DNA of 64,000 nt from an uncultured Actinomycetota bacterium (GCA_963796315.1 CAWCLH010000019.1:256676-320675), one strand, 5' to 3'; positions 11,416-62,129 are shown, counted from the first letter of the stretch. Notes: generated by a model from the sequence alone, not told the origin. Program-made: numbers and translations.

Positions 11416-11416
11416 C

Positions 11417-15229: not shown

Positions 15230-15230
15230 G

Positions 15231-36148: not shown

Positions 36149-36167
36149 GGCCTACCCGGTCGCTACG

Positions 36168-40541: not shown

Positions 40542-42585
40542 CTAGCCTGCTTCGGCCGGGCTGAGAGAGTAGGTCGGGCGATTTGCCGGGGTGGTCGGTG
40601 CCGGGAGTCTCACGTCCGCGCAGTGATCCACTCCGGGGAACGTGCCCACTTGCGTCCAGTCGAACGGCTGGTACGAGGGGACGCAGCACTGGATGGCCGC
40701 GAGCATCTCCTCCCGGCTGGGATAGCGCTCGCCGAGGCTGATCAGCCGGTGGAGGTGCTCCTCGAAGCCCTCGGGTATGCCACCATCGCCGCTGTGGCCG
40801 TTCCCGTTCGTCAGCACTGCCAGGTTGATCGCCGGGTGGCTCGTCGGTAGTGTGGACTCCCCCTTGGCATAGAGTTCCTCGTGCAGCTTCTCGCCGGGTC
40901 GAAGCCCGGTCACCTCGATGCCCATCTGAGCGCTTCCCGTGGGTGCGAGCATGTCGATCATCTGCTGCGCCAGATCGATGATCCGCACGGGTTTGCCCAT
41001 GTCGAGGACGAAGGCGCCGTATCGGCTCTCAATCTCTTGCCCGACCTCGCCGGCCATCGACCCAGCCTGCAAGACGAGGCGGACCGCCTCTTCGATCGTC
41101 ATGAAGTAGCGGGTCATCTCGGGGTCGGTGATCGTCACCGGCCCTCCGGCCTCGATCTGCTGGCGGAACAGAGGGATCACGCTGCCTCGGCTGCCCAGCA
41201 CGTTGCCAAAGCGCACCGAGCGGAAATGGGTGCGGGGATAGAGTTCGGCCATCATGCGTACGGTCTGCTCGCCGATCCGCTTGGTCGCGCCCATGACGTT
41301 GACCGGGTCGACCGCCTTGTCCGTGGAGATGTTGACCACCCGCTCCGCGCCGTAGCGGCCGGCCGCCTGGCTGATGACCAGCGTACCCTTGACGTTGTTG
41401 ATCACGGCCTCGTCCGGGTGGAGCTCCATGAGGGGAACGTGCTTGAAGGCCGCCGCGTGGAACACGATCTGCGGCCGATAGGCGGCGAAGACCGCGTCCA
41501 TCTTCATGGGAAGTGCCACGCTCGTCGGGTTGATCGTATAGTTGGTGTAGCCGCGCTCGCGCAAGCTCCTCGTGCAGGTGATAGAGCGCGGATTCGTCTT
41601 TGTCGATGAGGAAGAGCTCCTGTACCCCGAACGCCGCGATCTGCCGGCAGAGCTCCGAGCCGATGGAGCCCGCCGCTCCGGTGACCAGCACCTTCTTGCC
41701 GTGCAGGTAGGCGCCGATGGCCTCCAAGTCGATGTCCACCTTCTCGCGCCCCAGAACGTCCTCGATGCGGAGCTCCCGCGCGTCCTTGAAGTGGACCTCT
41801 CCGTTCATCATCTCCGACAACGTCGGGAGCGTCTTGACCGGGATGCCCAGGGGGCTGATGAGGCCATGGATGCGAGCCAGATCCTCGCCGGAGGCCTCGC
41901 GGTCAGCGATGAGCACCTCAGAGACGTCATGACGCGAGATGACCTCGGGAATATGGTCGATGGAACCGAGCACCTGTGCCTGATGCAGGCGCATGCCCTC
42001 GAGCTCGCGATCGTCTGTGACGATGCCCACGACGCGGGTACGCAACTCCGGGGTCTGACCGATCTCGCGGATGAGGTGTTCGGCCGTGGGTCCGGCACCG
42101 ACGACGAGCAGTTGCTGCTCCCAGGCCACGTTGGAAAGGCTGCGCTCATAGAAGATGCGCGTGTAGAAGCGGACAGCGACCATGACCACCATACTCATGA
42201 AGCCGCCGACCACCACGACGGACAAGGGAGCGAGACGGCCCGAGATGGGCAGCACAGCAACGGCGACGAATAGGATGCTGGTGCCGAAGAATGAGGCCTT
42301 AACGATCCTGAGCGCCTGGATCAGGCCGATATAGCGATTGATAATGGTGTACGCCCCGCTGAACCAGTTCGCGGTGATATGAGCCGCGATGGCCAGGACA
42401 AGGAAGAACGGCAAGTTGGAAAGATACTGTGCCTCCTTGGCTTGCCCTTCGGATCGGAAGGTCAGTGCCAAAGAGTACGCCACGGCGACTATCAGTGCGT
42501 CGATGACAATCGCCATGAGTCGGCGTCGCCATACTCTATGCAGCGCGACCCTCACCGACCCTCCACGTCCTCTCCACTCCTGCAT
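40542..42585 (-). pseudogene. Membrane-bound nucleotide-sugar 4,6-dehydratase (CapD/PglF/WbpM family); one frameshift near 41565
   Basis: Four N-terminal TM segments, Rossmann folds LLVVGAGPTAEHL and KKVLVTGAAGSIGSEL, then (other frame) IVFHAAAFKHVPLME, NISTDKAVDPVNVMGATKR and RFGNVLGSRGSVIP. The start (42585, 42516 or 42678) is uncertain. Confidence 0.8.
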
Positions 42586-43074
42586 CTCTCGCGGCCCGGA
42601 CGCCCCACGTCCGTGGCCCGGAGAGATGAAAACTCCCTCATCCAGCATAGAGGCGAATAGTTGGCCACGCAAGTGCAAAATTCGACGGAAGCGATAGCGA
42701 TTTCACCAGCGTGCACCAGCCTACCCCGCTCGGAGGCGAGACCAATCGCGATAAGAGTCGGTCTCCGTAGGAGATTGCACCTCGTCGGACCGCGTTGACC
42801 ACGTGAACCCTGCCAAGCCTTCTCGCCGGGGACGATGCAAGTGCTACGCCTCACGTTGATACAATCGTCGCTGCATGCAGCAGACGGCGGACTCTGACGC
42901 CGTCCGCGCAAAGCCAATCGAGCATGAAGGAGCACGCTCTTTCGGTGGCTCCGCCAGCACGGAACCGGAGGATCGCACGTCCCAGAATGGCTGAATCGTG
43001 CGCTGATGGACTCTCACAGAACGCTCAAGTGCTAGCTGTGAGCGACGAAGACGCTCCCTCACGCCGTCGGCGGT

Positions 43075-43667
43075 TTGACTGCCCGCGACCGGGCTTTGAA
43101 GCGGGCCTTCGACGTGGTCGCTGCCCTAGGGGGACTCATACTCACCGGCTGGCTGATCGGGCTGGCCTTCATCGCCGCCACCGTCGACACGCGAGCCCGC
43201 GGATTCTTCACCCAGGAGCGGGTAGGCCTTGGCGGTAGACGTTTCAGGGTGATCAAGATCCGTACCATGCGCGTCTCGGCCGGATTCCAGACCAACGTCA
43301 CCACGGCGACGATCCCCGGATCACTCGGCTCGGAAGGGTCCTGCGAAGGACCAAGATCGACGAACTCCCGCAGCTCATCAACGTCTTGGTGGGCGACATG
43401 AGCATGGTGGGACCGCGGCCGGATGTACCGGGAGTCGCGGACGCGTTGCGCGGTGAGGATCGCCTCGTGCTCTCCGTCCGGCCCGGCCTTACCGGACCAG
43501 CATCTCTTGCGTACAGGGATGAGGAACTTCTGCTTGCCAGACAGGCTGACCCCCAGCGTTACAGCGAAGAGGTCATCTATCCGGAAAAGGTCCGTCTAAA
43601 CGTAGAGTATGTCAAGAACTACAGTTTCTGGGGGGATATAGCCTACATAGTCAGAACTGTCTTCTGA
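43075..43667 (+). pseudogene. Small phosphoglycosyl transferase (bacterial sugar transferase, PglC/WbaP-C-terminal type); one -1 frameshift near 43315
   Basis: TTG start. KRAFDVVAALGGLILTGWLIGLAFIAA, FTQERVGLGGRRFRVIKIRTM, then after the switch [37 protein letters not shown]. Confidence 0.8.
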
Positions 43668-43693
43668 ATCTACTTAGGAAGTCCTCAGCAAGA

Positions 43694-44829
43694 TCACAGC
43701 TGAAGTTTGGCGCCTTCTTCTAGTGCGTCCGCGACCAAGTCGACTTCAGCTATAGTGAGGCTCCCGTGGAAGGGAAGCGCGATTGTCCGCTCGGCTCACG
43801 TCTTCTGTGACAGGCAGACTTCCCGGGCCCCATTTCCATTCGTTGGTTGGCTCCTCTTGCCGAGAGAAGCTCGCGAACGTAAGGCTGCGAGTGCACTGGA
43901 GGGAAGTAAGAACGTGCAGGGATGCCCACGCTGTTCAAGTAGGTGATCAGCTGGTCACGGTCCACGCCCGGCTTCAGAGTCACCACGTAGACAAACCAGC
44001 TCACCCGGACATCTGATCGTGAGACCGGGAGCGTCAGCCAAGAGAAGCCGCGGAGGCGTCGGGAGTACATCTGGGCCACCATTTCACGCTTGCGGAGTAG
44101 GGTCTTCACTCTCTTCATCTGGGAGACCCCAGCGCCGCGCTCATTTCATCGAGACGATAGTTGTAGCCCAGGCGCTCATGCGCGAGCCATGAGCCCATTC
44201 TGCCTCGGCCCTGATTTCGCCAACTCCGGCACGCCTCAGCCAACTCGGCACTGGAGGTCACGATCATGCCCCCTTCGCCGGTGGTGATCTGCTTATTGGC
44301 ATAGAAGGCGAAGGTGGCGGCGTCCCCGAAGGAACCTACTGGTCGTCCCCGATACTGGGCGCCGAGGGCCTCGCACGAATCGTCAATCACCGCGAGGCCG
44401 TGCTCTTGAGCGATCCGGTCGATCTCGTCCCAGTCGGCCGGGTGGCCAAAGACGTCCACCACCATGATCGCCTTGGTCTCTGGGCTGATCTTCTGTTCGA
44501 GGTCCTTGTGGATCCACGGTGTAGGTATCTGGCTCTATGTCGACGAAGACCGGAGTCGCGTGCTCGTAGAGGATGCAGTTGACGCTGGCGGCGAAGGTGA
44601 AGGACGGGACTAGCACTTCATCGCCGGGGCCGAGGCCCAGCGCCCGGACCGCTAGGTGAAGAGCGGCAGTGCCCGAACTGACGGCGACAGCGTGCTCGAC
44701 CCCCACATAATCGGCAACCATCGCCTCGAACTCGTCTTGCTTCGGGCCGAGGGAAAGACGTCCCGAGCGGAGGACGTCGACGACGCCGGCGATGTCGTCC
44801 TCATCGATGTCGGGCGCCGACATCGACAC
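43694..44829 (-). pseudogene. DegT/DnrJ/EryC1-family sugar aminotransferase (PglE-like); at least 4 frameshifts
   Basis: MSMSAPDIDEDDIAGVVDVLRSGRLSLGP .. SSGTAALHLA .. FYANKQITTGEGGMIV (PLP-Lys) .. GYNYRLDEMSAALG. The C-terminus ALPFHGSLTIAEVDLVADALEEGAKLQL* was recovered by hand, with stop at 43694-43696. Confidence 0.8.
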
Positions 44830-44889
44830 GCGGTCGTTGACTCACCGACTGCCTCCCCGCGTCGCGGAACGTCGGCCAATCAAAGGAAG

Positions 44890-46398
44890 TCAGATCCGGC
44901 CGTTACGCACATCTTCCTGTGCCTGCTGGTAGTCCTCGTGGCGCCCCACATCCAGCCAGTACTCGATGATGGGGAAACTGACGACCGTCCGCCCTTCCTC
45001 GAGCATCTTGTGGATCAGGTCGGTCATGTCGAAATGCTCGTCCTCCGGGATGAAGTCGCACGCCGTTGGCTCAAGTAGATACACCCCGGCATTGATGAGG
45101 AAGCTCAATGCGGGCTTCTCGTCGAGTGCGATGACCCTTGCGTCGTCGCATCGCACGACCCCGAAGGGAACCTTCACTTCGTACTTCCTCACTCCGACCG
45201 TGAGTTCCGCCCCGTGCTTTCGGTGATAGTGCAGCATCTCCTCGAATGAGACTCCGGTGAGCACGTCCCCGTTCAGCACCAGGAAAGGTCCGTCATCTCT
45301 GTCCCTCAGCTTCAGTCCGCCGGCAGTGCCGAGCGGCTGATCTTCCCTTGAGTAGGTCAGCCTGATCCCGAAGCCCTCCCCGTCGCCGAAGTGCTGGACG
45401 ATGTGGTCAGGCAGGTAGTGAGTGGTCAGGTTCACGTCCCGGATGCCGGAGCGGCGCAGTTGCTCGATGGTCCGTTCGAGCAGGGGGCGGTCTCCCACCG
45501 GCAGCATGGGCTTGGGAACGCTCTCGGTCAGCGGCAGCAGCCGCGTCCCGTATCCCCCAGCCATGATCACGGCGGAAATGCCCAGGTGGTTCTCCTGCAA
45601 GAGGTCTCGGCGTGGGAGGAACTGGACGAGCGTGCCCTCCTCATCCACGACCGGAAGGTGGTTGATGTCGCGCTGGGTCATGAGGTGGAGGGCATCGGCG
45701 GCGGATATCGAGCCTCGCGCGGTGATGGGATGAAGGTTGGCGATCGACTCGCAGGGATCGTCAAGAGAGGCCCCCCGAAGGATGGCCCGGCGGATGTCCC
45801 CATCGGTCAGCAGTCCCAGGAGTCTCCTGTCGGAAGAGCAGAGTGCCAGTGCCCCCGTCCCCGCCCTATCGAGGCGGGCCATCGCCTCCAGGATGGGCAG
45901 TTGGGGAGGGACGATGACCGCGTCCAAGAACTCGCTCACCCCCGCGACGAGATCCTTCTCCACGATGAGGTCCTTGCGCAGCAGCAGGGCCTGAAAGACG
46001 CCCTCCTCATCCACGACCGGAAGGTGGTTGATATCGCGCTGGGTCATGAGGTGGAGGGCATCGGCGGCGGATATCGAGCCTCGCGCGGTGATGGGATGAA
46101 GGTTGGCGATCGACTCGCAGGGATCGTCCAGAGAGGCCCCCCGAAGGATGGCCCGGCGGATGTCCCCATCGGTCAGCAGTCCCAGCAGCTTCCCGTCGGG
46201 GGCGCAGAGTGCCAGTGCTCCGGTCGCGACCTTGTCCAGGTGAGCCATGGCTTCGCCGATCGACGATCCCGGCGCGACGATGGCATCCTCCAAGGGTCGA
46301 CCGGGACTCATGGGCGGCACGTTGCGCTTCCGGCTTGCACGGCTGGCCCTCTGGCGGCGGAGCCGGTCATGTGATCCTCTTGGCCGGGGTGCCGACAT
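44890..46398 (-). CDS. Sugar-phosphate nucleotidyltransferase with four N-terminal CBS motifs (PtmE-like)
   Basis: Intact. Two CBS pairs, then AVIMAGGYGTRLLPLTESVPKPMLPVGDRPLLE, typical of the NTP-transferase fold. The start may be ATG 46311. Confidence 0.8.
   Translation of the reverse strand: MSAPRPRGSHDRLRRQRASRASRKRNVPPMSPGRPLEDAIVAPGSSIGEAMAHLDKVATGALALCAPDGKLLGLLTDGDIRRAILRGASLDDPCESIANLHPITARGSISAADALHLMTQRDINHLPVVDEEGVFQALLLRKDLIVEKDLVAGVSEFLDAVIVPPQLPILEAMARLDRAGTGALALCSSDRRLLGLLTDGDIRRAILRGASLDDPCESIANLHPITARGSISAADALHLMTQRDINHLPVVDEEGTLVQFLPRRDLLQENHLGISAVIMAGGYGTRLLPLTESVPKPMLPVGDRPLLERTIEQLRRSGIRDVNLTTHYLPDHIVQHFGDGEGFGIRLTYSREDQPLGTAGGLKLRDRDDGPFLVLNGDVLTGVSFEEMLHYHRKHGAELTVGVRKYEVKVPFGVVRCDDARVIALDEKPALSFLINAGVYLLEPTACDFIPEDEHFDMTDLIHKMLEEGRTVVSFPIIEYWLDVGRHEDYQQAQEDVRNGRI
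45634..46185 (-). repeat. Intragenic duplication: 186-bp cores 45634-45819 and 46000-46185 spaced exactly 366 bp (one CBS pair)
   Basis: I find only two mismatches between the cores (45667 G/A, 45764 A/C). The flanks of each unit are clearly more diverged. Confidence 0.85.
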
Positions 46399-46997
46399 AG
46401 GTACCGGGGGTAAGGAGGTCTCTGATGACCGTGGCCCCTGCGCCGACGACGCAGTCGCCGCCGATCGTGATGCCCTGTATTACGGTCGCCCCTGCGCCGA
46501 CCATGGTGTTATCGCCGATCGTCACCCCGCCGCTCACCGTTGCCCCCGGGGCCACGTGAACGTTCTCACCGATCCGGCAGTCATGCTCCACCGTGCTGTT
46601 CGTGTTGAGGATGGACCAGCCGCCGACCACCGTCCCGCTGTTCACCACGACGCCGTCGAGCACCACCGTCCCGGCGCCGAGATCCACCTCTTCATTGACG
46701 ACCGCCTGGGGGGAGGTAATCGCGGGGAAGCGATACCCAAGTGGCTGGATGGTTCGCTGGAGCTCCATCCGGTAGGGGGACGCATCGATCTTCCCCGTCC
46801 CGAGCACCGCTTGGCAGGAAGGGTCCTGCCCGATCAGCTCGGCCAAGAATCTCGTCGCTTCCAAGATACGGCGCTCCGAGACAGGGCCCTCGGTCCCGAT
46901 GGTCGGTGTAGCCGATAACGGCAAAGCCCAGCCTCTTCAGAACGCCGATCACCACCTTGGCGTGCCCCCCGCCGCCAACGACGACGATCCTATCCAT
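46367..46997 (-). pseudogene. NeuD/PglD-family hexapeptide-repeat sugar N-acetyltransferase; one frameshift near 46900
   Basis: MDRIVVVGGGGHAKVVIGVLKRLGF N-terminus, then left-handed beta-helix repeats IGENVHVAPGATVSGGVTIGDNTMVGAGATVIQGITIGGDCVVGAGATV. Confidence 0.8.
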
Positions 46998-48161
46998 CGC
47001 GGAGCGCTTGGACGACGTAGTCGATGTCGCTTGCCGTGAGACTCACACTGCAGGGAAGGTTGAGGGTGGTTTCCAGCATGCGCGGAGCCCTCTCGATCCG
47101 GTAGGGCTGAAAGCGGCGAAAGGGGGTCTGCAGATGGTTGAGCTGCCACAGCGGCCTCGTCTGGATGCCTTTCTCCAGCAGGTAGCCGCATGAGCTGCTC
47201 GCGATCGCGTCCGTAGATCCGGCTGTCGATGCGCAGGGGATACATCCAGTGGTTGTTTCGAGCATATGACGGGCTCGCCGCCATCTCCAGCCCATCGATC
47301 TGCTCGATGGCCGCAGAGTACGCTGCGGAAGTTCTCGCGCTTGGTCTCGAGGAAGTCGGGCAGACACTCCAGCTGAGCCACGCCGATGGCCGCCAGCACG
47401 TTGGTCAGCCGGAAGTTGTAGCCAATCTCCTCGTGGACGTAACGGACTTCATCATCCTTGGCCTGAGTGGTCAGGTACTTCGCCTTCTCCGCATGCTCCG
47501 GCCCGGTCGGTGACGATCATCCCCCCACCGCCGCTCGTGATGATCTTGTTGCCGTTGAAGGAGAAGCATCCGATGTCGCCGAGCGTCCCGGTGTGGCGCC
47601 CGGCCAGCTCACCCTCAAGGTAGACTGTCCCCAGGCTCTCGGCCGCATCCTCCACGATCTTGATGTTGCGCTCGCGACACGCCGAGAGAAGCTCCTGCAG
47701 TTGCGCGGCGTTCCCGAAGACGTGGACGGGTACTATGGCCGCTATCCGGTTGCCCGTTCCCCGATTGTAGGTACGACCCGTCCCTGGCTCTCGGTCTCCG
47801 TCTCGAGGAAGTCCAGCACCTTCTCCGCATCGATGTTGTAGTACTCGTCGCAATCCATGAAGATCGGGTCGGCTCCCTGATACCGGACGGCATTGACGGT
47901 GGCCACGAAGGTCACCGTGGGGACGATCACCTCGTCGCCGGGCAGCACCCCCGCGACCCGGAGGGCGACCTGGAGCGCCGCCGTGCCGTTGACACAGGCA
48001 ACCGAGTGGCCCGCGCCGGTGTAGGAGCGGATCGCGGCCTCGAACTGTTCGACGTACTTCCCTGCCGTCGACACCCACTCCGTGTCGAGGCACTCCTCGA
48101 CGTACTTCCACTCGTTGCCTCGTATGCACGGAACTGCCAGGGGTATCATGCGTTTTTCCAA
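46990..48161 (-). pseudogene. DegT-family aminotransferase (LegC-like); at least 5 frameshifts
   Basis: IPLAVPCIRGNEWKYVEECLDTEWVSTAG .. NGTAALQVAL .. FSFNGNKIITSGGGGMIVT .. GYNFRLTNVLAAIGVAQLE .. LNLPCSVSLTASDIDYVVQALRDG*, spread over three frames. Confidence 0.8.
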
Positions 48162-48165
48162 GTTT

Positions 48166-49143
48166 CTATGTATTGCTGTACTCTGCGGCGTCCGGGTTGG
48201 TGACTATTCCCTCATGTACGACATCGTATATCTCTCTAATGCCCTGTGGCACTCGCTTGGTTATTGTGAACCCTAGTTCATCTCTTATCTTGGAGAAATC
48301 GACGCGATAATCACGAGGGTCCTCGTCCCTGTGGACGAAGCGGATCTTCGCAGCCGGGTCGAGCTTCCACAGTTCGTCCGCAAGCATCGACTTTCTGGTA
48401 GTTCTCTGCGGTGTCGCCCACGCCGAACACGTTCTGCCGCAGCTTCTCAGGCGCACCCTCCAGAGCGAAGATGCACGCGCGAGCCAAATCGTCCACATGG
48501 CAGTAGGGGCGCCAGAACTGCTCCCCGAAGATTTCGAGCTCGCGCCCCAGAGCGACTTCTCGGGCGAACTCGTTGACCGTGAGATCGAAGCGGATCCGAG
48601 GCGAGAGGCCGTAGACCGTGGAGAAGCGCAGGGCGGTGGGGACGAAGTCTTCCCGGATCTCGCTTTGGAGCAGGTAGCGTTCGAACTCCACCTTCAGCTC
48701 GGCATAGAGCGAGACGGGAGTGAGAGGCGAGTCTTCGTTGACGAAGCCGTCCCCCTCCATCTTGCCGTAGTTGCTGCAGGTGGACGCGAAGATGAAGCGC
48801 TTGACGTGGCTGGTCGCCGCGCAGAGGTCGAAGAGGCTGCGCGACGCCTCCCAGTTGATCTCTCGCGCCAGCTCTGGCTGCTTGCGCAGGCGGGATCGCC
48901 GACGATGGCGGCCAGGTGGACTACCGAGTCGACCTCCGCGAGCGCGGCCCCCAGGCGCTCCGCATCTCGCACATCGCCCTTCACGAACTCGAAACGGGGA
49001 TGATTGTAGACAGGGATCAGGGGTTCGCCACCAAAGCTCAGGTTGTCGTAGCCCCTGACGGAGTAGCCATTCTCGAGCAGCAAACGGACGAGCACGGATC
49101 CGATGTAGCCGGCGGCGCCCGTGACCAGCACTCTCGCGCTCAT
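48166..49143 (-). pseudogene. NAD-dependent nucleotide-sugar epimerase/dehydratase (LegB-like); two frameshifts
   Basis: MSARVLVTGAAGYIGS, ..STCSNYG.. and YAELKVEFERYL (YxxxK). Switches near 48880 and 48420. Confidence 0.8.
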
Positions 49144-49646
49144 GTTGATTTGCCTCTCATGATCATGTCCCGTCCATTCCGTCCCGTCCGGCACCGCAAT
49201 GTTTGCGATCTACTGACGCGCTTCGCGCTGAGGAGGCGCGTGGTCGATGACGAATCGGTGAGCACCACGCCTGCGACATGACGGTCGTCGATTTGAGTGC
49301 GATAGCCAACCCCCGCATGAATGACCCTACATGCCCTATCGGTCGTAACAAGGTGTTCATCAAGGGTAGCGCATGCGTCGCACCCGGGGGAGACCTCGTG
49401 GCAGAGCCGCCTCCGGAGGCCGGCCCGACATTCCGCAGGCACTCCCGATGCACTCATTTCAAGGGAAGCTGCCCAGTGCCGACACGCGATTGGGGCCCCT
49501 CTACCCATGGTTCCCGGAGTTCACGGTTCTGCCGCGGCCACCCCGCGCCCAGCTTACTGCACAGCCAAACGTGCGTTGCGGCCGGCGTTTCCGATAGGAT
49601 GGCTGCACCACAGCCACGTCTATGGTGTTCCAACGAGGAGAACAAG

Positions 49647-52558: not shown

Positions 52559-53355
52559 CTGTCACGCTGAAGGATCTCTTCTCGCTGGAAGGTCGTACCG
52601 CTCTAGTGACCGGCGGGGCTGGGTTTCTTGGATCCGCCATGTGTGAAGCCCTCGCCGAGCTCGGCGCAAGTGTTGCCATCGCGAGCCGCGACGAGCAGAA
52701 ATGCAGGAATGCAGCGGCAGCCATCCAGGAGGAGTTTGGCGGCAGCAGTCGCGCGATCGGGCTGCCGCTGGACCTTCTCGAACCCCAGTCGATCACTGCT
52801 TGCGTCGAAGCGGTGGAGCGGGAATTCGGCCGGCTGGACATCCTCATCAACAATGCATGGTCGGGGAACAAGAACACGTGGGAGAGCATCTCCGAGAAGG
52901 ACTGGCTCTACGACATCGACATGAGTCTCAACTCGCCCTTTAGGATGATCAAGGCTGCCTTCTCGATGCTGAAGGAGCAGCGTGGGGTGATTTTGAACAT
53001 CGGGTCGATGTACGGTCACGTAGCGCCTGACTATCGGATCTACGATGGGAAGGAATTTGCCAATCCGCCTAGCTATGGTGCGGCCAAGGCCGGCGTGATC
53101 CAATTCACCAAGTATCTCTCGAGCTTCCTGTCGCCGTATGGCATACGTGTGAACGCTCTTAGTCCCGGCGCCTTCCCCCATCCACCGACCAGAGAGCACA
53201 AGGTGTTCTTGGACAAACTCTCCGCCAAGAACCCCCTCGGTCGGGTCGGTGACCCGCCGGACCTCAAGGGTGCGGTTGCGCTGCTGTGCAGCGACGCCGG
53301 CGCCTACATCACCGGCCAGAACATCTGTGTCGACGGTGGGTGGGCAGTGTGGTAA
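52555..53355 (+). CDS. Short-chain dehydrogenase/reductase (SDR)
   Basis: Intact 266 aa. [22 protein letters not shown] .. YGAAKAG. Confidence 0.85.
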
Positions 53356-54275
53356 CGAAAGTCGGAATCTTAGGCCTGAGTCCAGGAAACGGACATCCGT
53401 TCTCTTTCTCGGCCATCATCAACGGCTTCGATGATGAAGGTATGGCCCGGTCAGGGTGGCCGGGCATCCATGACTACCTGAAGCGTCGCGACGCCTCCGA
53501 ATTCGGCATCGACGGCCTGCAGGTCACCCATGCGTGGACTCAGGACGAAGACACGACACGCACTCTGTGCTCGGCCTGCCGTATTCCCTCCGCTGTTGGT
53601 CGGCGGGAGGAGATGCTTGGAAACGTCGACGCCGTTATCATTGCGCGTGACGACCACGAGACCCACCTTGAGATGGCACGACCGTTCCTGGAGGCCGGGT
53701 TACCCGTCCTGGTCGACAAGCCCCTTGCCTTGGACGCCAGTGCCCTCGGCTTCTTCAGAAGCTATCTTGGAGGAGGGCAAGCTCATGTCCTGCTCTGGAA
53801 TGAGGTACGCGAAGGAGTTGGACGACGTGCGTGCATCCCTGGCGGCAATCGGCCCGCCGTTGTTGGTGCGGGGAGCGATAGTCCTCTCGTGGGAGAAATA
53901 CGGTATCCATCTCATAGATGCCGTATTTGGCGTTACGGGGGCACGCCCAGTCTCGGTCGTCGCTCTCGATACCGCGCACAGTTCGATGGGAATCGCCATG
54001 GACGACGGTTCTCTTCTCCAAATCGATGCTCTCGGCGAGGCGCCTCCGACGTTTCGGTTGGATTTCTGGGCGGCCACGCGCTCATGGACGCTGCGAGATC
54101 ACCGACAACTTCTCCATGTTCCGACGAATGCTGTGGCATTTCGCCGAGATGATGCGGAACCGGACGGCCGGAGGTGCCCGTTCAGGACACTCTGGACGCC
54201 ATGCGGCTACTCATCGCGGGCAACCTTGCGAAGAAGACGGGAAAGAAGGTGCTGCTCAGTGACATCGCACTATAG
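53349..54275 (+). pseudogene. Gfo/Idh/MocA-like oxidoreductase; three +1 frameshifts
   Basis: GTG overlaps the SDR stop. KVGILGLSPGNGHPFSFSAIING .. AVIIARDDHETHLEMARPFLEAGLPVLVDKPLA. Switches near 53765, 54085 and 54170. The end ..KKVLLSDIAL* stops at 54273-54275. Confidence 0.65.
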
Positions 54276-55083
54276 GGACCTCTTCTCTCTTCGCGGGAAG
54301 ATGGCGATCGTCACGGGAGGCCTTGGGATTCTCGGCCGCGGGTTCTGTCGCGGACTGGCCGAATTCGGAGCGGACATCGCCGTCGTCGACCTCGACGGCG
54401 AGGCCTGCGCGCGCTTTGCTCAGGAACTCACGGACAGCGTGGAGTCCGGGCTGCAGGCGTCGGGTGCGACGTCGCCGATCCTGATTCGGTCGAGGCGATG
54501 GTTCGCCGTACGGTGGAACTTCTAGGCGGAGTGCATGTCCTCCACAACAACGCGGCTTCGAAATCGGCGAATCTCGACGCCTTCTTTGCGCCCTTCGAAG
54601 AGTATTCGCCTGGACGAGTGGCGGAAGGTGATGGCCGTTAACATCGACGGCATGTTCCTTGTCGCCAAAGCGGTGGGACGGCAGATGATCAGACAGAGGA
54701 CCGGCGGAAGCATCATCCAGACGGCGTCGATCTACGGCATCCGCGGTTCGGACAAGAGGATCTATGAAGGTTCTTTCTATCTGGACCGGCAGATAAGCAA
54801 TCCGGCCGTCTACTCCACCTCGAAGGCCGCGGTCGTGGGGTTGACCAAGTACCTCGCTGCCTACTGGGCAGACCAGGGGATACGGGTCAACACGCTGGTG
54901 CCGGCGGGCGTCGAGAGCGGGCAGAACGAGACCTTCAAAGCGCGGTATGCGGCGCGGGTCCCGATGGGCAGGATGGCCCGAGCGGACGAGATGGTCGGCG
55001 CCCTAATCTACCTGGCCTCGGATGCGTCCAGCTACGTGACGGGCCAGAATCTCGTCGTCGATGGCGGGTTAAGCGCTTGGTAG
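54259..55083 (+). pseudogene. Short-chain dehydrogenase/reductase (SDR); two compensating frameshifts (about 54430 and 54605)
   Basis: KMAIVTGGLGILG, LHNNAA (shifted frame), ASIYG .. YSTSKAAVVGLTKYLA, YVTGQNLVVDGGLSAW*. Confidence 0.8.
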
Positions 55084-55102
55084 TAGGACGACAGCGCGCC
55101 TT

Positions 55103-56114
55103 GTGAGTCTCTACGTGAATCGCCGCGTCACGATCGTCATGTACCATTTCGTGCGTGAGCTGAAGCGCAGCCGATTCCCCGACATCAAAGGACTCTCAAT
55201 CGAGGAGTTCCGCGGCCAGATAGAGTACATCCGCCGGCACTACAGCGTTGTCGGCGTGCCGGACCTGCTTGCCGCGCTCGGGTCCCCGACCGATCCCTGC
55301 CGCCGCGCGCGCTCCTGTTGACCTTTGATGACGGCTACCGCGATCATTTCGACACTGTCCTGCCCATTCTGGTGGAGAACGGCCTCACTGGATGCTTCTT
55401 CCCGCCGGCAAAGGCAGTGACTGAACACGAGGTACTCGACGTCAACAAGATCCACTTCATCCTTGCCGCCGTTCCGGACAAGGACGCGTATCCTCGACTC
55501 ACTCTTCGCCTTGGTCGATGCCGCCAGGGGGGAGTACTCCCTACGGAATCGCGACGACTATATTGAGCAGCTCGCGCATCCCAACCGTTTCGACACGGCC
55601 GAGGTGATCCTCATCAAGCGGCTGCTGCAGCGGGAACTGCCGGAGACCCTGCGAAAGAGGATCACCGGTGAGCTCTTCCGGCGGTTTGTCACCGAGGATG
55701 AAGCCGCCTTTTCGCAGGAGCTGTACATGGACACGGCCGAGCTGCGCGTGATGAGAGAAGCAGGGATGCATATCGGTAGTCACGGCTTCGATCACTACTG
55801 GCTTGATTCGCTGGATGAGCAGGCTCAGATGCGCGAGATAGATCTATCGCTGCGCTTTCTCCGTGCGAGTGGGATACGACACCGAGAACTGGGTCATCGG
55901 CTATCCCTACGGCGCCTACAACGATTCGCTCCTGCGCATCCTCAGGCAAAGAGGCTGCAGAGCCGGTTTCACCACCGAGGTTCGTGTCGCCGACATCGAT
56001 CACGACGACCCGTTGACGCTGCCGCGGCTCGACACGAACGATCTGCCCAAGCGGGCGGATGCGGCGCCTAACGCGTGGACGATGCGGCGTGTCACAGGGG
56101 AGGTTGCCACGTGA
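55103..56114 (+). pseudogene. Polysaccharide deacetylase-family protein; at least 3 frameshifts
   Basis: VTIVMYHFV .. LLTFDDGYRDHFDTVLPIL .. MHIGSHGFDHYWL .. VIGYPYGAYN, read over three frames. Confidence 0.7.
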
Positions 56115-57406
56115 CTGTGATGATGAGGATCCTCGAGGACCTCACCCCGCTGAATCGGACCATGTGCTCGACGTGACTACGACCGGGCCGTGGAGTACAT
56201 GCGAGCAGCTGCTGCCGTTCGAGGTCTTGTCGTACTCCTCCGCGTCGGAGGAGCACAACGGCTGGGTCATCCCGCCCAGGTGGGATGTGTCGGAGGCCAG
56301 CATCACCAAGGATGGCCGACTCGTCTACGACGGTACGTGGCATCCGCTGGGCGTCATCGCCCTCTCGGCCCCCTTCGAGGGCACGGTGTCCCGAGAGGTG
56401 CTTGAGGGACCACCTGCACTATGACCATCGCTACAGCGACTCGCTGACTTATCATTTCCGGCAGCAGTTCCGCACGTGGGATCGAGAATGGGGTTTCTGC
56501 GTTCCCAAGGACGTCTACGACGCGTTGGAACCCGGTGACTACAACGTCCGCATCGTGACGGACGAAGCGCCCGGCGTGTTGAAGGTCCTCGTGGGCACGC
56601 ACACGGGCTCACTGCCGTATTCCATCGCCCTGTGTGCGAATCTCGATCATCCCGGTGTGGCCAACGATGGGCTTGGCCGGGGTGGCTGTGGGGGTGGAGG
56701 TCTTTCGGCGGCTGCAGGACAGGGCGACGAAGTACACCTACAAGTTGGTGCTCGCGCCCGGCATCCTCGGCACGGAGTACTACCTCGGCAAGCTTGCGCC
56801 GGAGGAACGAGGGAGCATCCTCGAATGCCTTTGCCTGTGGATGTTGGGCTCGCGCACGGAACTCGCCCTCCAGGAGTCGCGCGGCGTCCCGCTCGAACAT
56901 CGAGCACGCCATGGCCGCCGTCATGGACGCCCAGGCGATACCGTATCGCCGAGGCGAGTTCGAGAGCATCATCATCAACGACGAGTACCTCTGGGAGGCC
57001 TACGGCATCCCCACGAGCTCGCTGTCCCGATTCCCGTACCCGGAGTATCACTCTTCGCGTGACGACATCTCGATCATGAGCGAGGAACACCTCGAGGAGG
57101 CCGTCGCCATTGTCCTCGGGGCGATCGAAGAACTCGAGGCTACCGCCACTGGTGGAGAAGCGGTTTGAGGGCACTATTTGCCTGTCCAATCCACGCTACG
57201 GTCTGTACGTGGATCCCGGCCAGATCTCCTTCGGCGAGGGAGTCAGCGAAGAGCAGCGCCGACTCCGCATGTTGCAGGACTACCTGCCGACACTGCGGCT
57301 TCCGGTAACTATCCGGAATCTCGCATCGCGATTCGAACTGTCGGAAGCAGATGTCTTGGACTATCTACGGAAGTGGGACGAGAAAGGCCTTGTCACGATT
57401 TGGTAG
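56111..57406 (+). pseudogene. Aminopeptidase-like domain protein with a C-terminal winged helix (COG4310 / DUF2172-DUF4910 type); at least 6 frameshifts
   Basis: GTG overlaps the deacetylase stop (GTGA). The reconstructed protein reads MMRILEDLTPLNRTMCS .. NGWVIPPRWDV .. LCANLDHPGVANDGL .. YTYKLVLAPGILGTEYYL .. RFPYPEYHSSRDD .. LASRFELSEADVLDYLRKWDEKGLVTIW*. Confidence 0.55.
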
Positions 57407-57668
57407 TAGTTGGATTCAGTTCTTTCCCACTGGTGCTAGCTGGGCGCGTCCGACGTTCACTGACTAGTCGAGGCCGATGTCAAAACTCTGGCTAGGCGAC
57501 TTGGGGAGTCGCACTTGCTGCAGTGAGCAACCCGGACTGACGCCAGTATTAAATCATATAGTATGCACACGCAAGGCTGTGTATATGTTGTCTCGTTTGT
57601 CGTTCTTCTAATTCAATAAGGATGCGTAGTCCGTCTCTTAGCCTAGGTGCTGAGATCGGCGTATCCGA

Positions 57669-60226
57669 TTGCATGCGGCAGATGAAGAGAGTAGCCTCGG
57701 TAAGACGCCTCACGCAAGGACCGAACCGCACGGAAGTGCGCCGGTCGTGGCCTGCTCGATGGGGCTTGGTGGGCGCACCGACTCAGCGGCTTCGCGACAG
57801 AGAGGCAGGTCCTTGTCCCGACTCGTTCGCTCGCTGAGGGCAGAACTCAGGTGGGTTGCGGCGCTCGCCCTGGCGCCGTGGATTGCCGTAGCACTCGCGA
57901 CCGGCGGCCCAGTCGTCGCGGTCCACCTGCTGGTTTCGCTTGCCGTCCTCGGCGGGCTGGGCGTGATTGCCCTGCGCCTTGGAATGGCCGAACGGCGCGG
58001 GGAGGCACTCGTCCTGCTCGCCATCCCAGTTGGATTCGTCTTCGCGGCCGCGCTCCTCGCGCTCTCAGCACGGCTCTCTCTTTCGCTTCGAGTCACCGGC
58101 TGGGGCTTGGCGGTCATCGGCTTGGCGGGACTCCTCCTCGTGCAACGGGAATGGCGGGGCTTGGCTCGCGAGAGCCTTCGGTACGGGATTGCCTATGTTG
58201 TGTTGTCCGCCGTGATTTGCGGTGTGTACTTCGCGCCGGGCGCATTGCAGGACGGAGTCACGACCTCAGAGGGTGCATTCCAATGGATGTATGTCGATAC
58301 GCAGAACCACATGGCGGTCGCTTCGGCTGTGAAGACGGACCACGGTCAGCCGAAGATGCCCGGATTGGCGACCGCCCCGCTCACCTATCACTTCGCACCG
58401 TTCGCGGCGGCGGGTGCGCTGTCGACAATGACAGGCTTGCCGATTCCGGATGCGCTCGCGCGGGTCGTACGGGGTATCGGTCTACTGGCGCTTCTACTGG
58501 CTGCACTCGGGTGCGGTCGTGTCCTGGGGAGGCGCCTCGGGGGTGCCGCCTTGGGGGGTATTGCCTCGGTGGTCGGACTGTTCTTCTACGGGTCGCTCTC
58601 CGCCCTCTTCGTGCCTCAAGCTAATTCGTCGTCCGCGGCCGGCCTTCCGGCATTACTCTTCTCGGTGCCGGGCCTCGCCGTCGTTCACGACGCCGGGTGG
58701 TTCTCTCACCTCGTTCTGGGGCATTCCGAGCTGTGGGGGGGATCGGCATTTTCGTTACGCTCGCGCTCGTCGCCGATCGTCTGACGTCTGTCGAGCATGC
58801 CCGGCTTCCCATCGACCTACTGATCGTCCTGCCGGCGCTCGTTGCGTGTCTCAACGTGATCGCTGGCATCGGCATCGTGGGGGTCGTGGTCGCGGTCTAC
58901 GCGCTTCTGGGTCTTCGCCACAAGCGTGCCCTGATCGCTTCGGTCGGCACTCTTTTGGCCGCCATTCTCGTTGCATGGATCATGGGCTACGTCGGTAGCG
59001 CCTCCGCGTCGGGGGTCGCGTTCGACCTTGGGTATTCTGCGAAGGCGCTTACGCTCTGGAAATGGCTGTTTGTCGGCTTGGGCGTTCGGATAGTGGCGGC
59101 GGCTTGGCTGCGCCGCTGGCGAGCAGACCCAGTCGCGTGGGTCCTGATCGCATTCGTGGTGGGCTACCTCGCGATGGGCTTCCTACTGCGTGACGACTTC
59201 GACGAACACAATCTCTACGCACTGAAGTTCCTGCAGGGGATTCTGAGCGTGTTCGCATTCGCTTGGCTGGGTGCCATTTGGGCGAGAGCGAAACCCCACT
59301 GGAGTGAGACCGCCGCGCGCGAGTTGCTGTGGTGGTCTTGGCGGCTCGGTGGGCTTCTGTTGATGGCCGATGTCGCTGCCGTGGGTCTAACGGCGATTCG
59401 TGGCGACGCGACGCCTAGATCGCTGCTGTTGGCGACGGTTGGCGCCCTGGCGGTCACGCTGGCGGCCGCCGCCCTACTAGCCTGGCGGCGGCGTGCGCCG
59501 ACCGGGTGGCGGTCGGCATCGGCTGCCGTGCTCATTGTGGTGGCCGTTGGTTTAGCAGCGTGGCTACCCTCATGGATGGGATACGGTCTCAACCGCCTGC
59601 ACGTGGAGGTCACTCTGTCTTCCGACGAGGTAGCAGCGCTTCGGTGGGTGCGCAACACATCCGGTCCGGACGCGCTCATAGCGACCAATCATCACGCCAT
59701 CGAACAGTTTCGAGTCCGCCCGGACCGTTCATACGGATACCGCGTGATCGCAGAGCGCCCGGTGCTGTTGGAAGGCTGGGAGTACGGGGAGAAACTCGCG
59801 CCATCGTTTGCCACAGTTCGCCGTGACAACGACGTGCTATTCCACGCGACAGACCCCGACTCGGCCCGCGCGGTGGTCCAACGATACGGCATTCAATTCA
59901 TTGTCATGGCCCCAAAGACCGACTTGCACATCACGGCAGCGCCCTGGTTGCGGCTCGCCGCGCAGTTCGGATCGGTGAAGGTGTACCGAACCAACGCGGC
60001 TCGTGTCGGGGAATCTGACCAGGGAGGTCCCCGCACCACGCGCTGCGTCCTTTATCCATCCCCAGATTCGGTCCCGTCACATAGCCGATGCGTCCGACGC
60101 CAGATGGACCATGGCACCAACCAGTCGTCAGCCGTCGCCATCCGCCCCATCGGGACCCGCGCCGCATACTCTTGCTCGAAGTCTTCGTTCCGGCGGCTCT
60201 CGACGTCGGCGAGTACAAGTGTGTAG
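57669..60226 (+). pseudogene. Large polytopic membrane protein with a C-terminal soluble domain (GT-C-like glycosyltransferase/polymerase candidate); one frameshift near 58740; 3' end uncertain
   Basis: About 15 hydrophobic segments across ORFs 57669-58784 and 58697-60226, joined at HLVLGHSELWGG|IGIFVTLALV. Soluble tail ..RWVRNTSGPDALIATNHH..VLLEGWEYGEK..QFIVMAPK. Beyond about 60010 the frame runs antisense through an SDR remnant. Confidence 0.5.
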
Positions 60227-60600
60227 GTCCGGATACCCCTGTCTGCCACTCCCGGCCCTTGCGAGCATAGCCGAGCGCGGCACCTCGAGGAGGCTGCACG
60301 CGACATTCAGACGGCGCGGGGCAGGTGTTTCCTCCTCTCCTGTGTGAGGTCATCGGATCAAAGGGCGCCCCTTCTAGGCCTCCTTGAGGATGTCGATGTC
60401 CAAGAGCAGATTCGCCCATCTTCTGCTTGTGGCGCTTGGGCTGTTCGCCCTCAGGGGCTTCTTCACCCTTGGCATCGAGCGCAGCCCGCCTACTTTGCCG
60501 TCCAACGTTGGACGTTCTCCGGGATCTCTTCCGACACCATAACCACCTCCTCCCGTGATGCAATCACGGCTTATGGGTAGCTCCAACGGGGAGGGGAGCA
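60010..60600 (-). pseudogene. Decayed SDR paralogue (inverted relative to 54259-55083)
   Basis: Minus-strand fragments ITGGGGYGVG .. DIDILKEA .. GGN..PRGAALGYA .. GIRTYTLV..EQEYAARVPMGRMATADD .. YVTGPNLGMDKGRSAW. A 23-nt identity TATGCGGCGCGGGTCCCGATGGG is shared with 54945-54967. An internal deletion and frameshifts are present. Confidence 0.55.
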
Positions 60601-60799
60601 CAATAAACCCCCGTCTTTGCGGGCTGCCTTCTGGGCCGTGGTCTCGCCCTACGAAATGCGCACGACAAGCGCCGCCATCGCTTGGCTGTCCAGCGCTGCA
60701 CACTCTCCCGGATCTCCTCCGACGAGGGTGCCACCACCTGGGGCAACACGCGACGCCGCATTTTGACGAGGGCATAACGGCAGCGGAGAAGGATAAGCG

Positions 60800-62129
60800 C
60801 CTAGTCTGAGAGCGCAACCTCGACGACGGCATGCCCGTGCGATGACTTGCGCAATTCGCGCCGAAGCGGCACCGTCTAGTCTGAACAGGTGATCCTCGAC
60901 TACCCGAATTCCCCCTTCATATAGTTTGTGCCGCACCTGTTGATTCTCCATAGCGTCATGAACGGCAGTTGACAGGTCTTGGCTGTTTGTTACATTTAGC
61001 GCTCCTCCGTATCGGTATGCGTCAAATTCTAACTCTTGAAGGTAGGCTACAGTTACAATTGGTATACCTCTAACAATTGCGTGATATGCAACAGTGGAAA
61101 ACATAGTTACTAACACGTCTACATCATCTAGCATGTCTACTGCATCGCCATAGTTCTGATTTCCAGCAAATTCTTCCGAGCATCGGAATTATGTATCACC
61201 TTAAGTAGATTATGTACGTTCGCCTTCGAAAAAGGATGGAGCTTAATAATAAGGGAATAACCGTGCTCGTCACAACAAATACGTGTCAAATCTTCGAAGA
61301 ATGCCATTTCAGCAGACTCCTCTAAAATGTGCTGCTGGGCATACATTACTCTGCCATCAAGTGTTTGGCGGGTAGCATCCCGGAAGTTCCGTAATGTGAT
61401 CGAAGCTCGGGTTACCTACCACAAATGCCGTGTCACTTCGACGACCGTGACGTATGGTCTCTCTCTTTGAAGCGTTACCATACGCACAAAAACAATCAGA
61501 ATGGGTATACGGTATCCTAGTCTCCCGGAACAGTTCATGAGGAACACGGCGGAGCAACCAGCGTGCAGAACTGCGTAACCCACCTCCGAGCGCTGCGCGC
61601 AGTCTGGGCTCATCAGGCGGATCCTGAGCCGGAAACAGGCCCTCCTGTACCGCTATCGAGGGAATCCTCGTACCTTCGCCCAGTAGACCAACACTCGGAG
61701 CCATTTGTAGTAGTCCAGGTGCGTGACGATCGCAGCGAACGGTGGTCGTGAGAAGATCAATCGAGCTCCGCGAGCAGTACCTAACTCTACTAGCGGATTC
61801 CAGGACGCGAGTCCGAAATGGCTGTTCGACAGCGGGAGTCTCACAGTGCGACAGCCTGGAACGGCGTAATCCGCGGTCGGCAGCGTCCGTTCCTCGTCAA
61901 GTTCTGCGTACAACGTTGCAACGGTTAGTCCCGTCTCCAGACATGCCGCTGCAATGCGCTGCTGCTGCCGCACAACATTCTTGTTCGCCACCATGAAGAT
62001 TGCCACGTCCGCAAGCCACTCCCCTTCCCAAGGCCGGCCATCTACCAGCACAGGAAGGCGTGGACCCCTGGTGACGGCGCGGACTACTCGTTCAAGGGAT
62101 CTGTCGAATGAGAAACTCCTGAAAGCCAA
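60800..62129 (-). pseudogene. AT-rich glycosyltransferase of the capsule-synthesis (KpsS/KpsC-like) or TagF-like type, split into four ORF pieces
   Basis: Pieces 61653-62129, 61357-61704, 61137-61346 and 60649-61134. ..GYSLIIKLHPFSK.. and ..DVLVTMFSTVAYHAIVRGIPIVTVAY.. resemble the KxHP and xxTxxSTxxxEAxxxGxPV motifs of those families. Confidence 0.45.

Follow-up and report, generated by a model that had tools for sequence, protein, structure and literature searches.

What kind of surface glycan does a bacterium build from a block of unusually GC-poor sugar genes, and how did it come by them? The question is raised by a 64,000-nucleotide stretch of DNA from an uncultured Actinomycetota bacterium (GCA_963796315.1, CAWCLH010000019.1:256676-320675; hereafter the window, whose coordinates are used throughout), in which a contiguous glycan-biosynthesis block extends from 40,542 to about 62,110 (21.6 kb). 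With a probability of roughly 0.7, we read this block as a horizontally acquired cell-surface glycan island whose product is a CMP-activated 5,7-diacylamido nonulosonic acid, either of the legionaminic acid (Leg) type or a close stereoisomer. The pathway would be of a known kind; what is new is the systematic replacement of the dehydratase LegB by an uncharacterised, cysteine-containing family of short-chain dehydrogenases/reductases (SDRs), together with two rare cluster-specific proteins, here called T1 and R9.

Genes were read in six frames and then stitched gene by gene in a frameshift-tolerant manner with fixed ends, which reconstructed 17 genes between 40,542 and 62,108 (Table 1). From a start at 49,143, a minus-strand operon runs leftward through G1, G2, G3, G4, G5 and G7, with the plus-strand gene G6 lying between the last two; from a start at about 49,587–49,647, a plus-strand operon runs through NeuB (R1), NeuC (R2), NeuA (R3) and R4 to R9. 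To the right of R9 follow, on the minus strand, an SDR gene fragment and T1, and then an IS21-family transposase gene; the left neighbour of the island is msrP/msrQ. The guanine-plus-cytosine (GC) content of the block is 0.611, compared with 0.677 in both the left flank and the right remainder of the window, and is lowest in T1 (0.524), NeuC (0.543) and NeuB (0.567). A first-pass annotation, made from the sequence alone, had already described a lower-GC glycan locus of about 21.6 kb with divergent operons meeting at 49.1–49.6 kb; both descriptions stand, with the intervening region placed at 49.14–49.59 kb. A sigma-70 promoter scan of that region gave no consensus match.

The core of the locus is a set of five nonulosonate enzymes, all of them named in the first-pass annotation. 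Four exceed the cut-offs of curated family models (Table 1): the LegC-like aminotransferase G2, the NeuD/PglD acetyltransferase G3, the NeuB/LegI synthase R1 and the hydrolysing NeuC/LegG epimerase R2, the last scoring only 58 bits on the model for the non-hydrolysing enzyme WecB. The fifth, the CMP-synthetase R3, is a NeuA-type cytidylyltransferase, 77–78% identical to the NeuA proteins of two related clusters, L001 and L026 (the L026 product carries PF02348); its match to the PseF model, at 140 bits, stays under the cut-off of 206. G2 is 66–74% identical to LegC from L001, L026 and a third cluster, L023. The other models of the pseudaminic acid (Pse) pathway fare no better than PseF: PseI scores 313 bits on R1, below its cut-off of 340, the best scores among the locus proteins are 307 for PseC (cut-off 423) and 159 for PseB (cut-off 408), and no locus protein matches PseG or PseH.

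Gene order was compared across relatives, among them those from two scans: one of a genome collection with NeuB (22 loci, top identity 75%) and one of metagenomes with R4 (338 relatives, top identity 80%), from which 80 loci were kept for gene-order counts. A look-up of NeuA for identical proteins gave no match. The island is syntenic, at 66–82% amino-acid identity, with the cassettes of L001, from a gammaproteobacterial metagenome-assembled genome (MAG), and L026, a 57%-GC contig. L001 has the order LegB–LegC–acetyltransferase–NeuB–NeuC–CBS nucleotidyltransferase–NeuA–SDR–GFO oxidoreductase–SDR–polysaccharide deacetylase–DUF4910, and most of its proteins are 66–78% identical to those of the window (acetyltransferase 48%, CBS nucleotidyltransferase 33%). 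L026 is the closest relative of the island as a whole (G1 72%, LegC 74%, NeuB 80%—as against 75% for L001—NeuC 75%, NeuA 78%, SDR 82% and R9 67%). Loci from Vibrionaceae, Moritella, Shewanella and Leptospira share the order dehydratase–LegC–NeuC–NeuB–acetyltransferase–CBS nucleotidyltransferase–NeuA, which is treated as a Leg cluster (PMC7371886, PMC4481668), and the set PtmA, PtmF, PtmE, LegH, LegI and LegG occurs in experimentally studied Leg clusters (PMC4481668). Among the 80 metagenome loci, the recurrent order is acetyltransferase–NeuB–NeuC–CBS nucleotidyltransferase–NeuA–SDR–GFO–SDR–(R9-like)–deacetylase–DUF4910–G1–LegC; the island is thus a single instance of a cassette found widely, its genes redistributed over divergent operons.

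The first-pass annotation had proposed a phylogeny of NeuB as a check on the identity of the sugar. In a neighbour-joining tree with PseI (8H2C), Neisseria meningitidis NeuB (1XUU) and Bacillus subtilis SpsE (1VLI) as references, the window protein groups with those of L026, L001 and L003, within a wider clade that adds L002 and the Leptospira and Vibrionaceae synthases. All three references fall outside this clade: the window protein is 35–36% identical to PseI and N. meningitidis NeuB and 39% identical to SpsE (its best PDB sequence match, at 220 bits), as against 50–80% to the synthases of Leg-type clusters. The gene set and the NeuB clade support a predicted product of the legionaminic acid type, and the clade, combined with the presence of LegC, a 2-epimerase of the hydrolysing kind and a PglD-type acetyltransferase, would exclude pseudaminic acid. 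In this respect the first-pass annotation, which had argued for legionaminic rather than sialic or pseudaminic acid, agrees with the curated models, the synteny and the tree.

Table 1. Predicted features of the glycan island and its right-hand border, in order of position; scores are in bits unless given as E-values, and families are as assigned by the named model or closest homologue.
Feature	Predicted product or nature	Coordinates	Strand	Frameshifts	Match or evidence
G7	Membrane-anchored PglF/CapD-type NDP-GlcNAc 4,6-dehydratase, about 620 aa	40,542–42,516	−	1, near 41,565	Best PDB match 5BJU
G6	Small polyprenyl-phosphate sugar-phosphate transferase, PglC-like, encoded opposite to its neighbours	43,093–43,667	+	1	TIGR03025 C-terminal domain (Bac_transf type), 172, E = 2e-50
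G5	Second DegT-family sugar 4-aminotransferase	43,697–44,823	−	At least 4	PseC 307, LegC 255, both under cut-off
G4	PtmE-like sugar-1-phosphate nucleotidyltransferase, four CBS domains, 473 aa	44,890–46,311	−	Intact	Pfam CBS (3 stretches scored) and NTP_transferase 165
CBS repeat	Tandem duplication of the CBS pair inside G4	45,634–46,294	−		295-nt copies 45,634–45,928 and 46,000–46,294
G3	NeuD/PglD/LegH-type N-acetyltransferase	46,367–46,997	−	1	TIGR03570, 190 (cut-off 160.8)
G2	LegC-family aminotransferase	46,990–48,149	−	4	TIGR04181, 470 (cut-off 420)
G1	Extended SDR with STCSNYG motif, in LegB position but not LegB	48,166–49,143	−	2	Best PDB match 6VO6
Intergenic	Divergent region between the operons	49,144–49,586	.		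No coding signal in either direction
R1	NeuB/LegI-type nonulosonate synthase	49,587–50,666	+	Intact	TIGR03569, 479 (cut-off 400)
R2	Hydrolysing NDP-sugar 2-epimerase (NeuC/LegG type)	50,678–51,857	+	1, near 51,610	TIGR03568, 456 (cut-off 236)
R3	CMP-nonulosonate synthetase (NeuA/LegF type)	51,854–52,558	+	Intact	PseF and KdsB-family model matches
R4	SDR, PtmA-like	52,555–53,355	+	Intact	Pfam adh_short_C2, 171; PtmA position of known Leg clusters
R5	GFO/IDH/MocA-family oxidoreductase, PtmF-like	53,349–54,275	+	3	Pfam PF01408, 34.8
R6	Second SDR	54,280–55,083	+	2	Pfam adh_short_C2, 150
R7	Polysaccharide-deacetylase-family protein	55,127–56,090	+	3	Pfam PF01522, 66.6
R8	DUF4910/DUF2172 aminopeptidase-like protein	56,123–57,406	+	6	Pfam PF16254 87.8, PF09940 68.1
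R9	Polytopic membrane protein, 720 aa as stitched	57,834–60,016	+	1, in a run of seven Gs at 58,736–58,742	L026 homologue
SDR2 remnant	SDR2-like gene remnant, C-terminal fragment only	60,036–60,246	−		tblastn with L001 SDR2 residues 212–282, 59–69% identity
T1	GT-B-fold protein, GC 52%, candidate CMP-nonulosonate transferase	60,820–62,108	−	About 5	Intact L026 homologue
istA	IS21-family transposase gene flanking the island	62,743–63,831	+	About 7	NF033546, E = 4e-44

Leg-type sugars can be reached from GDP- or UDP-linked precursors, and the island has features of both routes. G4, recognised in the first-pass annotation as a CBS-nucleotidyltransferase, indeed joins CBS to NTP_transferase domains, an architecture found at the same position in the Vibrionaceae and Leptospira clusters, and its catalytic domain best matches mannose-1-phosphate guanylyltransferases (NF052502, 162 bits; PDB 7X8J and 7D72). 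In Campylobacter jejuni PtmE is GTP-specific, and LegC is GDP-specific both there and in Tannerella forsythia (PMC5378307). R4 and R5, which resemble PtmA and PtmF by family and position (R5 is 70–81% identical to its L001 and L026 counterparts), adjoin NeuA as in Plesiomonas shigelloides and Vibrio fischeri, whose Leg clusters have an SDR next to an oxidoreductase near NeuA (PMC4481668). The two CBS-pair copies inside G4 are 87% identical at a spacing of 366 nt, and a 476-aa homologue of the same extended length in L023–L025 is 65% identical over 467 residues; the divergence of the copies and the shared length argue against an assembly artefact. Given the PtmE-like architecture, the guanylyltransferase-like domain, the LegC family and the kinship of G1 to PDB 6VO6, presumably a GDP-sugar enzyme, the N-acetylhexosamine precursor is probably GDP-linked. 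The GDP-sugar features claimed in the first-pass annotation therefore hold up in part: the support is indirect, and G7, a complete PglF-type dehydratase of the kind that opens the UDP route, had been overlooked.

A UDP-dependent route to Leg, with a PglF-like first enzyme, is established in B. subtilis (PMC7439481). Were the island to follow it, as in Legionella pneumophila or B. subtilis, then G7, G5 and G3 would make UDP-di-N-acetylbacillosamine for NeuC and NeuB, and G1, LegC and G4 would make a separate NDP-4-amino sugar for the glycan. We regard this as unlikely, albeit with real evidence in its favour. The catalytic domain of G7 matches PDB 5BJU ('WlaL protein'), which we take to be PglF of C. 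jejuni, with 254 bits, and the protein carries the motif STDKAV, with its NCBIfam matches to PseB (159) and FnlA (144) both under cut-off; one T1-containing cluster (L029) has a PglF-type enzyme with no G1 or LegB in view; and G1 also occurs with a nucleotidyltransferase and an aminotransferase elsewhere, away from nonulosonate genes. On the other hand, the G1–LegC pair travels with NeuB, NeuC and NeuA in L026 and many metagenome loci that have no PglF nearby, and the aminotransferase beside the PglC-like gene, G5, has GDP-perosamine synthase (3BN1, 246 bits) as its best PDB match and is farther from PglE (1O61, 145 bits). The PglF-like, PglC-like and aminotransferase genes are, moreover, contiguous, as expected of a priming module. 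Because of this contiguity, and because G6 is a PglC-type initiating transferase, we read G7, G6 and G5 as probably a priming module for the reducing-end sugar.

The least expected protein of the island is G1, which occupies the slot of LegB. The first-pass annotation had called it a LegB-like dehydratase, a candidate assignment that we rejected: G1 scores 55.6 bits on the LegB model (NCBIfam TIGR04180, NAD-dependent GDP-GlcNAc 4,6-dehydratase) against a cut-off of 475 (G7 scores 37), and a tblastn search of the window with the genuine LegB of L001 (475 bits) found only the Rossmann N-terminus of G1 and no LegB homologue. The closest solved relative of G1, aligned over its full length at 174 bits, is PDB 6VO6/6VO8, which we take to be Cj1427, a GDP-sugar C4-dehydrogenase, the PDB title saying only 'putative sugar-nucleotide epimerase/dehydratase'. 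Cj1427 oxidises C4 of GDP-heptose with alpha-ketoglutarate as co-substrate and without dehydration (PMC10680097). G1 belongs to a large SDR family, and its STCSNYG motif is at least 98% conserved among 120 homologues from many phyla (63–82% identity). At the key position, G1 reads T-C-S-N, 6VO6 T-N-S-G and the L001 LegB T-S-E-T; dehydratases have T-D-E, T-S-E or T-D-K.

Homologues of G1 keep regular company. The gene lies directly upstream of LegC or another aminotransferase in L023, L026, L027 and L028, and its contexts fall into two groups: nonulosonate clusters in which it precedes a LegC-type aminotransferase (L023–L025 and L026), and polysaccharide clusters without NeuB, NeuC or NeuA, in which it forms a trio with an NTP-transferase and a DegT aminotransferase (L027, L028; 10,001–10,975 and neighbours). 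The trio implies that the pair of G1 and aminotransferase is a general 4-amino-sugar module and not specific to nonulosonates. The gene immediately upstream of LegC is of the G1 type in 14 of the 18 metagenome loci with LegC in view, of the LegB type in three, and cut off by the contig edge in one. ASTCSNYG persists in the G1-type copies (about 50% identical overall), TSTSE[TV]YG stands in those of the LegB type, and the STCSNYG SDR is thus the usual LegC partner in this widespread cassette. Since G1 and LegB fill the same slot in cassettes that are otherwise 75–80% identical (L026 versus L001), the two appear functionally interchangeable, and their exchange beside downstream enzymes 66–80% identical is most simply explained if both lead to the same intermediate.

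If, instead, G1 acted as a C4-dehydrogenase and nothing more, a hydroxyl would remain at C9 of the product. The island would then make a different, possibly undescribed nonulosonic acid: a Cj1427-like G1, recycled by alpha-ketoglutarate and coupled to LegC without 6-deoxygenation, would yield a 5,7-diacylamido-3,5,7-trideoxy (9-hydroxy) nonulosonate, re-acylated via R7 and R8, and T1 would found a new nonulosonate-transferase family. This is a doubtful proposition, in our judgement, although it would account for the kinship with 6VO6 and for the trios outside nonulosonate clusters, the T-C-S in place of T-D-E, T-S-E or T-D-K is kept in 16 metagenome cassettes as well as in the 120 homologues, and the aminotransferase partner would provide the alpha-ketoglutarate. 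It sits poorly with the constancy of LegC, NeuC and NeuB, which remain 66–80% identical among L001, L026 and the window while G1 and LegB are swapped, and the invariant cysteine of G1 (asparagine in 6VO6) could itself act as the missing acid/base. We know of no natural 9-hydroxy 5,7-diamino nonulosonate, which also counts against the proposal. The reading of G1 as a functional analogue of LegB stays well ahead.

Downstream of the synthesis genes, R6, R7 and R8 belong to the cassette rather than to the window alone: an R6-type SDR stands beside the GFO gene in 57 of the 80 metagenome loci, an R7-type deacetylase occurs in the cassette in 33, and an R8-type DUF4910 gene lies beside the deacetylase in 31. 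Deacetylation of Leg-type sugars has been reported at the nucleotide-sugar (CMP-sugar) level (bioRxiv 10.64898/2026.04.20.719630), and this report together with the conservation of the deacetylase/DUF4910 pair makes re-tailoring of an N-acyl group by R7 and R8 plausible.

R9 is most likely a polymerase, a ligase or an exporter, to judge from context alone. Its open frame runs on to 60,226, and the intact L026 homologue has 733 aa. The family counts seven proteins by word-index search and 213 representatives by full profile search, with members inside nonulosonate clusters in L026, L032 and 29 of the 80 metagenome loci. Pfam gave no match for R9, and 40 diverse relatives gave a single one, to PTPS_related (PF10131, E = 1.6e-8), a family of the GT-C clan. 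That match lies in the separate N-terminal half, a membrane domain, of P0149, a relative of 1304 aa that is either a fusion or two proteins called as one, and profile comparison found no homology between this half and R9. A motif conserved in the family, R-P-x-L-L-E-G-W-x-Y-G, lies in the soluble C-terminal domain (about 59,760–59,800; residues 641–652 of the L026 homologue). Its W-[DE]-Y-G core recalls the WWDYG of STT3/PglB oligosaccharyltransferases; Pfam gave no match to STT3.

Apart from the initiating transferase, no gene of the island but T1 looks like a glycosyltransferase, which makes T1 the best candidate for the nonulosonate transferase. Across four segments it shares 47–56% identity with the L026 homologue, which is intact. 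A word-index search of 5.8 billion proteins found nine family members, and the contexts seen are Leg-type clusters in four of four cases (window, L026, L029/L030 and L031), with no occurrence in the 80 metagenome cassettes. The motifs QEG and KLHP are invariant in the family and are reminiscent of D/E-D/E-G and HP in bacterial sialyltransferases. Modelled with AlphaFold (AF2; pLDDT 84), the intact homologue adopts a GT-B fold and gave generic GT-B matches, with no specific match to a sialyltransferase fold. The same protein reaches 19.4 bits on PF05159 (Capsule_synth), under the Pfam gathering threshold of 20; the weak family matches to this model centre on the KLHP motif, two of the nine members have a precomputed PF05159 match, and matches to DUF6716 and Epimerase_2 are equally weak and sub-threshold. 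PF05159-family proteins encoded beside nonulosonate modules are predicted nonulosonate transferases in Acinetobacter (PMC4487303).

We infer the substrates, the nucleotide, the roles of G1, T1, R7, R8 and R9 and the target polymer in the following scheme. G4, with the PtmA- and PtmF-like R4 and R5, would supply an NDP-N-acetylhexosamine, probably GDP-linked, from which G1 would form a 4-keto sugar; G2 would transaminate C4 and G3 would N-acetylate the resulting amine. R2 would then free the sugar of its nucleotide and epimerise C2, R1 would condense the hexose with phosphoenolpyruvate, and R3 would form the CMP-sugar, whose N-acyl group R7 and R8 probably re-tailor. In parallel, G7, G5 and G6 probably build the reducing-end sugar, a 4-amino-4,6-dideoxy-N-acetylhexosamine, on undecaprenyl phosphate. 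Transfer of the nonulosonate is most likely the task of T1, and that of R9 is most likely polymerisation, ligation or export of the product.

The ability to make a Leg-type surface glycan probably reached the organism horizontally, as the first-pass annotation had suggested, though not on all the grounds it gave. Five observations point to acquisition: the lower GC; closest relatives in unrelated lineages (the 57%-GC contig and gammaproteobacterial and Conexibacteraceae MAGs); a mosaic likeness, in which G1, LegC, the acetyltransferase and the four-CBS nucleotidyltransferase are nearest to L023, and NeuB through DUF4910 to L001 and L026; the SDR2-like remnant; and the IS21 flank. The IS21 element, likewise named in the first-pass annotation, is represented by IstA, at 151 bits against the NF033546 cut-off of 160 on frameshift-stitched sequence, the window ending before any istB or terminal repeats. 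The SDR2-like remnant, which sits between R9 and T1 and overlaps the 70 codons by which the R9 frame runs on, has the look of a scar that recombination with another nonulosonate cassette left behind. The argument from a tRNA island 2 kb away fails, as ARAGORN and Rfam find a single tRNA in the window (Thr, 30,504–30,576), 10 kb from the locus; nor did the proposed context of an SLH-bearing protein materialise, a crude motif scan of the window giving no SLH domain.

The island is broken by about 35 frameshifts in 13 of its 17 reconstructed genes, and whether it can work at all depends on their nature. They could be real, in which case the locus would be a decaying pseudogene cluster and no nonulosonic acid would be made; the number of interrupted genes, a frameshift density above that of the window's GC-rich parts with their many intact genes, the gene remnant within the island and the adjoining insertion sequence would all fit. 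We nevertheless hold decay to be improbable and the frameshifts to be most likely assembly errors, because nuoD, nuoH, nuoL and the IS21 transposase gene have frameshifts as well; because about 6,000 codons of tblastn segments, taken in the correct frame, are free of stops, and there are no large deletions; because identity to intact homologues stays at 63–82% on either side of the junctions checked (G1, NeuC and R9); because one junction, in R9, falls in a homopolymer of seven Gs; and because the contigs of related MAGs—error-prone, and the closest public relatives—show similar split genes. The compositional bias at third codon positions (GC3) is also retained in the island. On the assumption that these are assembly errors, we treat the locus as functional.

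That the locus makes N-acetylneuraminic acid (Neu5Ac) or pseudaminic acid can be set aside with little hesitation: NeuB, NeuC and NeuA alone would be enough for Neu5Ac, and TIGR03569 is named N-acetylneuraminate synthase, but the LegC-family aminotransferase and PglD-type N-acetyltransferase in the same operon set render Neu5Ac very unlikely, and the Pse models that failed to pass and the distance of NeuB from both reference synthases speak against either sugar.

Several points nonetheless weigh against our interpretation. The Leg assignment of the NeuB clade rests on gene context, since the tree contains no biochemically validated LegI (Cj1327, Lpg0752). A 4-keto-6-deoxy intermediate is not assured, because G1 is without the Asp/Glu (or Asp/Lys) pair that known 4,6-dehydratases have, and 6VO6, the solved structure nearest to it, is presumably a C4-dehydrogenase. 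A single N-acetyltransferase serves what we take to be two amino-sugar branches. The presence of a complete PglF-type dehydratase and a second aminotransferase means that the UDP route (Legionella, B. subtilis; PMC7439481) could feed the same synthase. The island has no Wzx-like flippase, though L026 has one; the T1 model matches 2-epimerases, GT4 and GT1 enzymes and TagF about equally, with 2-epimerases ranked first; and R9 has no assignable fold, its AlphaFold model having a pLDDT of 53 and a best Foldseek E-value of 0.09, which is meaningless. Finally, the frameshifts are concentrated in the lower-GC stretches (8–13.6 kb and 40.5–64 kb), many genes of the GC-rich part being intact, for which assembly errors alone offer no obvious cause.

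Elsewhere in the window, the complex I operon (8,082–16,731; GC 0.648, below its surroundings) is frameshifted several times, in nuoD, nuoH, nuoL and nuoM/N; NuoD is split between 8,082–9,209 and 8,743–9,816, and its second piece continues in frame into the NuoH N-terminus. The topoisomerase I open reading frame (22,846–25,194) aligns with its Pfam domain no earlier than profile position 113, which suggests another frameshift near the 5′ end. A second mobile element, an IS30-like transposase frame (HTH_38 and rve; 31,063–32,727, minus strand), lies 0.5 kb from the tRNA-Thr gene. A c-di-GMP-I (UAU variant) riboswitch at 34,879–34,957 on the plus strand (69.8 bits, gathering score 65.9) stands directly upstream of a gene for a secreted pectate-lyase-like protein (35,025–37,164), which has a paralogue at 32,796–33,956.

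The way in which phages, hosts and neighbours recognise a bacterial surface is shaped by nonulosonic acids, whose genetics has been little mapped outside pathogens. The cassette described here is common in soil and peat metagenomes, where the textbook LegB is usually replaced by the uncharacterised SDR family of G1; the enzymatic function of G1 would tell a non-orthologous dehydratase for legionaminic acid from an enzyme leading to a different sugar. Nonulosonate transferases are scarce in the literature, and T1, of which an intact homologue exists, offers a concrete candidate.

Individual parts of the island have known counterparts. PDB 6VO6 shares with G1 the elements GAGYIGS, PRMR.DL.VN.F and YxxxK, and neither has the dehydratase acid/base pair; they differ in the key motif already compared, and G1 is coupled to LegC and nonulosonate genes rather than to heptose epimerases and reductases. 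KpsS1, KpsS2 and Gtr59 (PF05159) of Acinetobacter capsule loci are, like T1, GT-B proteins encoded beside a nonulosonate module, whereas T1 scores under the PF05159 cut-off and its family is very small. With the bacillosamine module of the Campylobacter and Neisseria Pgl systems, the island has in common a PglF-like membrane dehydratase, a short PglC-like transferase, a DegT aminotransferase and a PglD-family acetyltransferase, but its aminotransferase resembles PglE less than it does GDP-perosamine synthase, it has one acetyltransferase, and it has no recognisable PglB/PglL-type oligosaccharyltransferase.

At the level of the whole pathway, two systems invite comparison. The UDP-dependent Leg pathways of L. 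pneumophila and B. subtilis (SpsM, C, D, G, E, F) also combine a PglF/SpsM-type dehydratase with an aminotransferase, an acetyltransferase, NeuC, NeuB and NeuA; SpsE, however, lies outside the NeuB clade of the island, which in addition has the PtmE-like enzyme of the GDP route and a LegC-family aminotransferase. From the pathway to Leg in C. jejuni/coli, T. forsythia, Plesiomonas and Vibrio, the island differs in having the STCSNYG SDR instead of LegB, a duplicated CBS pair, an added SDR, deacetylase and DUF4910 protein, divergent operons and no Maf-type flagellin transferase, yet it shares with that pathway LegC, the PglD/LegH acetyltransferase, the hydrolysing 2-epimerase, a NeuB-type synthase (here of the clade of the Vibrionaceae and Leptospira cluster synthases), the CMP-synthetase, the CBS-nucleotidyltransferase and the pair of SDR and GFO oxidoreductase (PMC4481668, PMC5378307).

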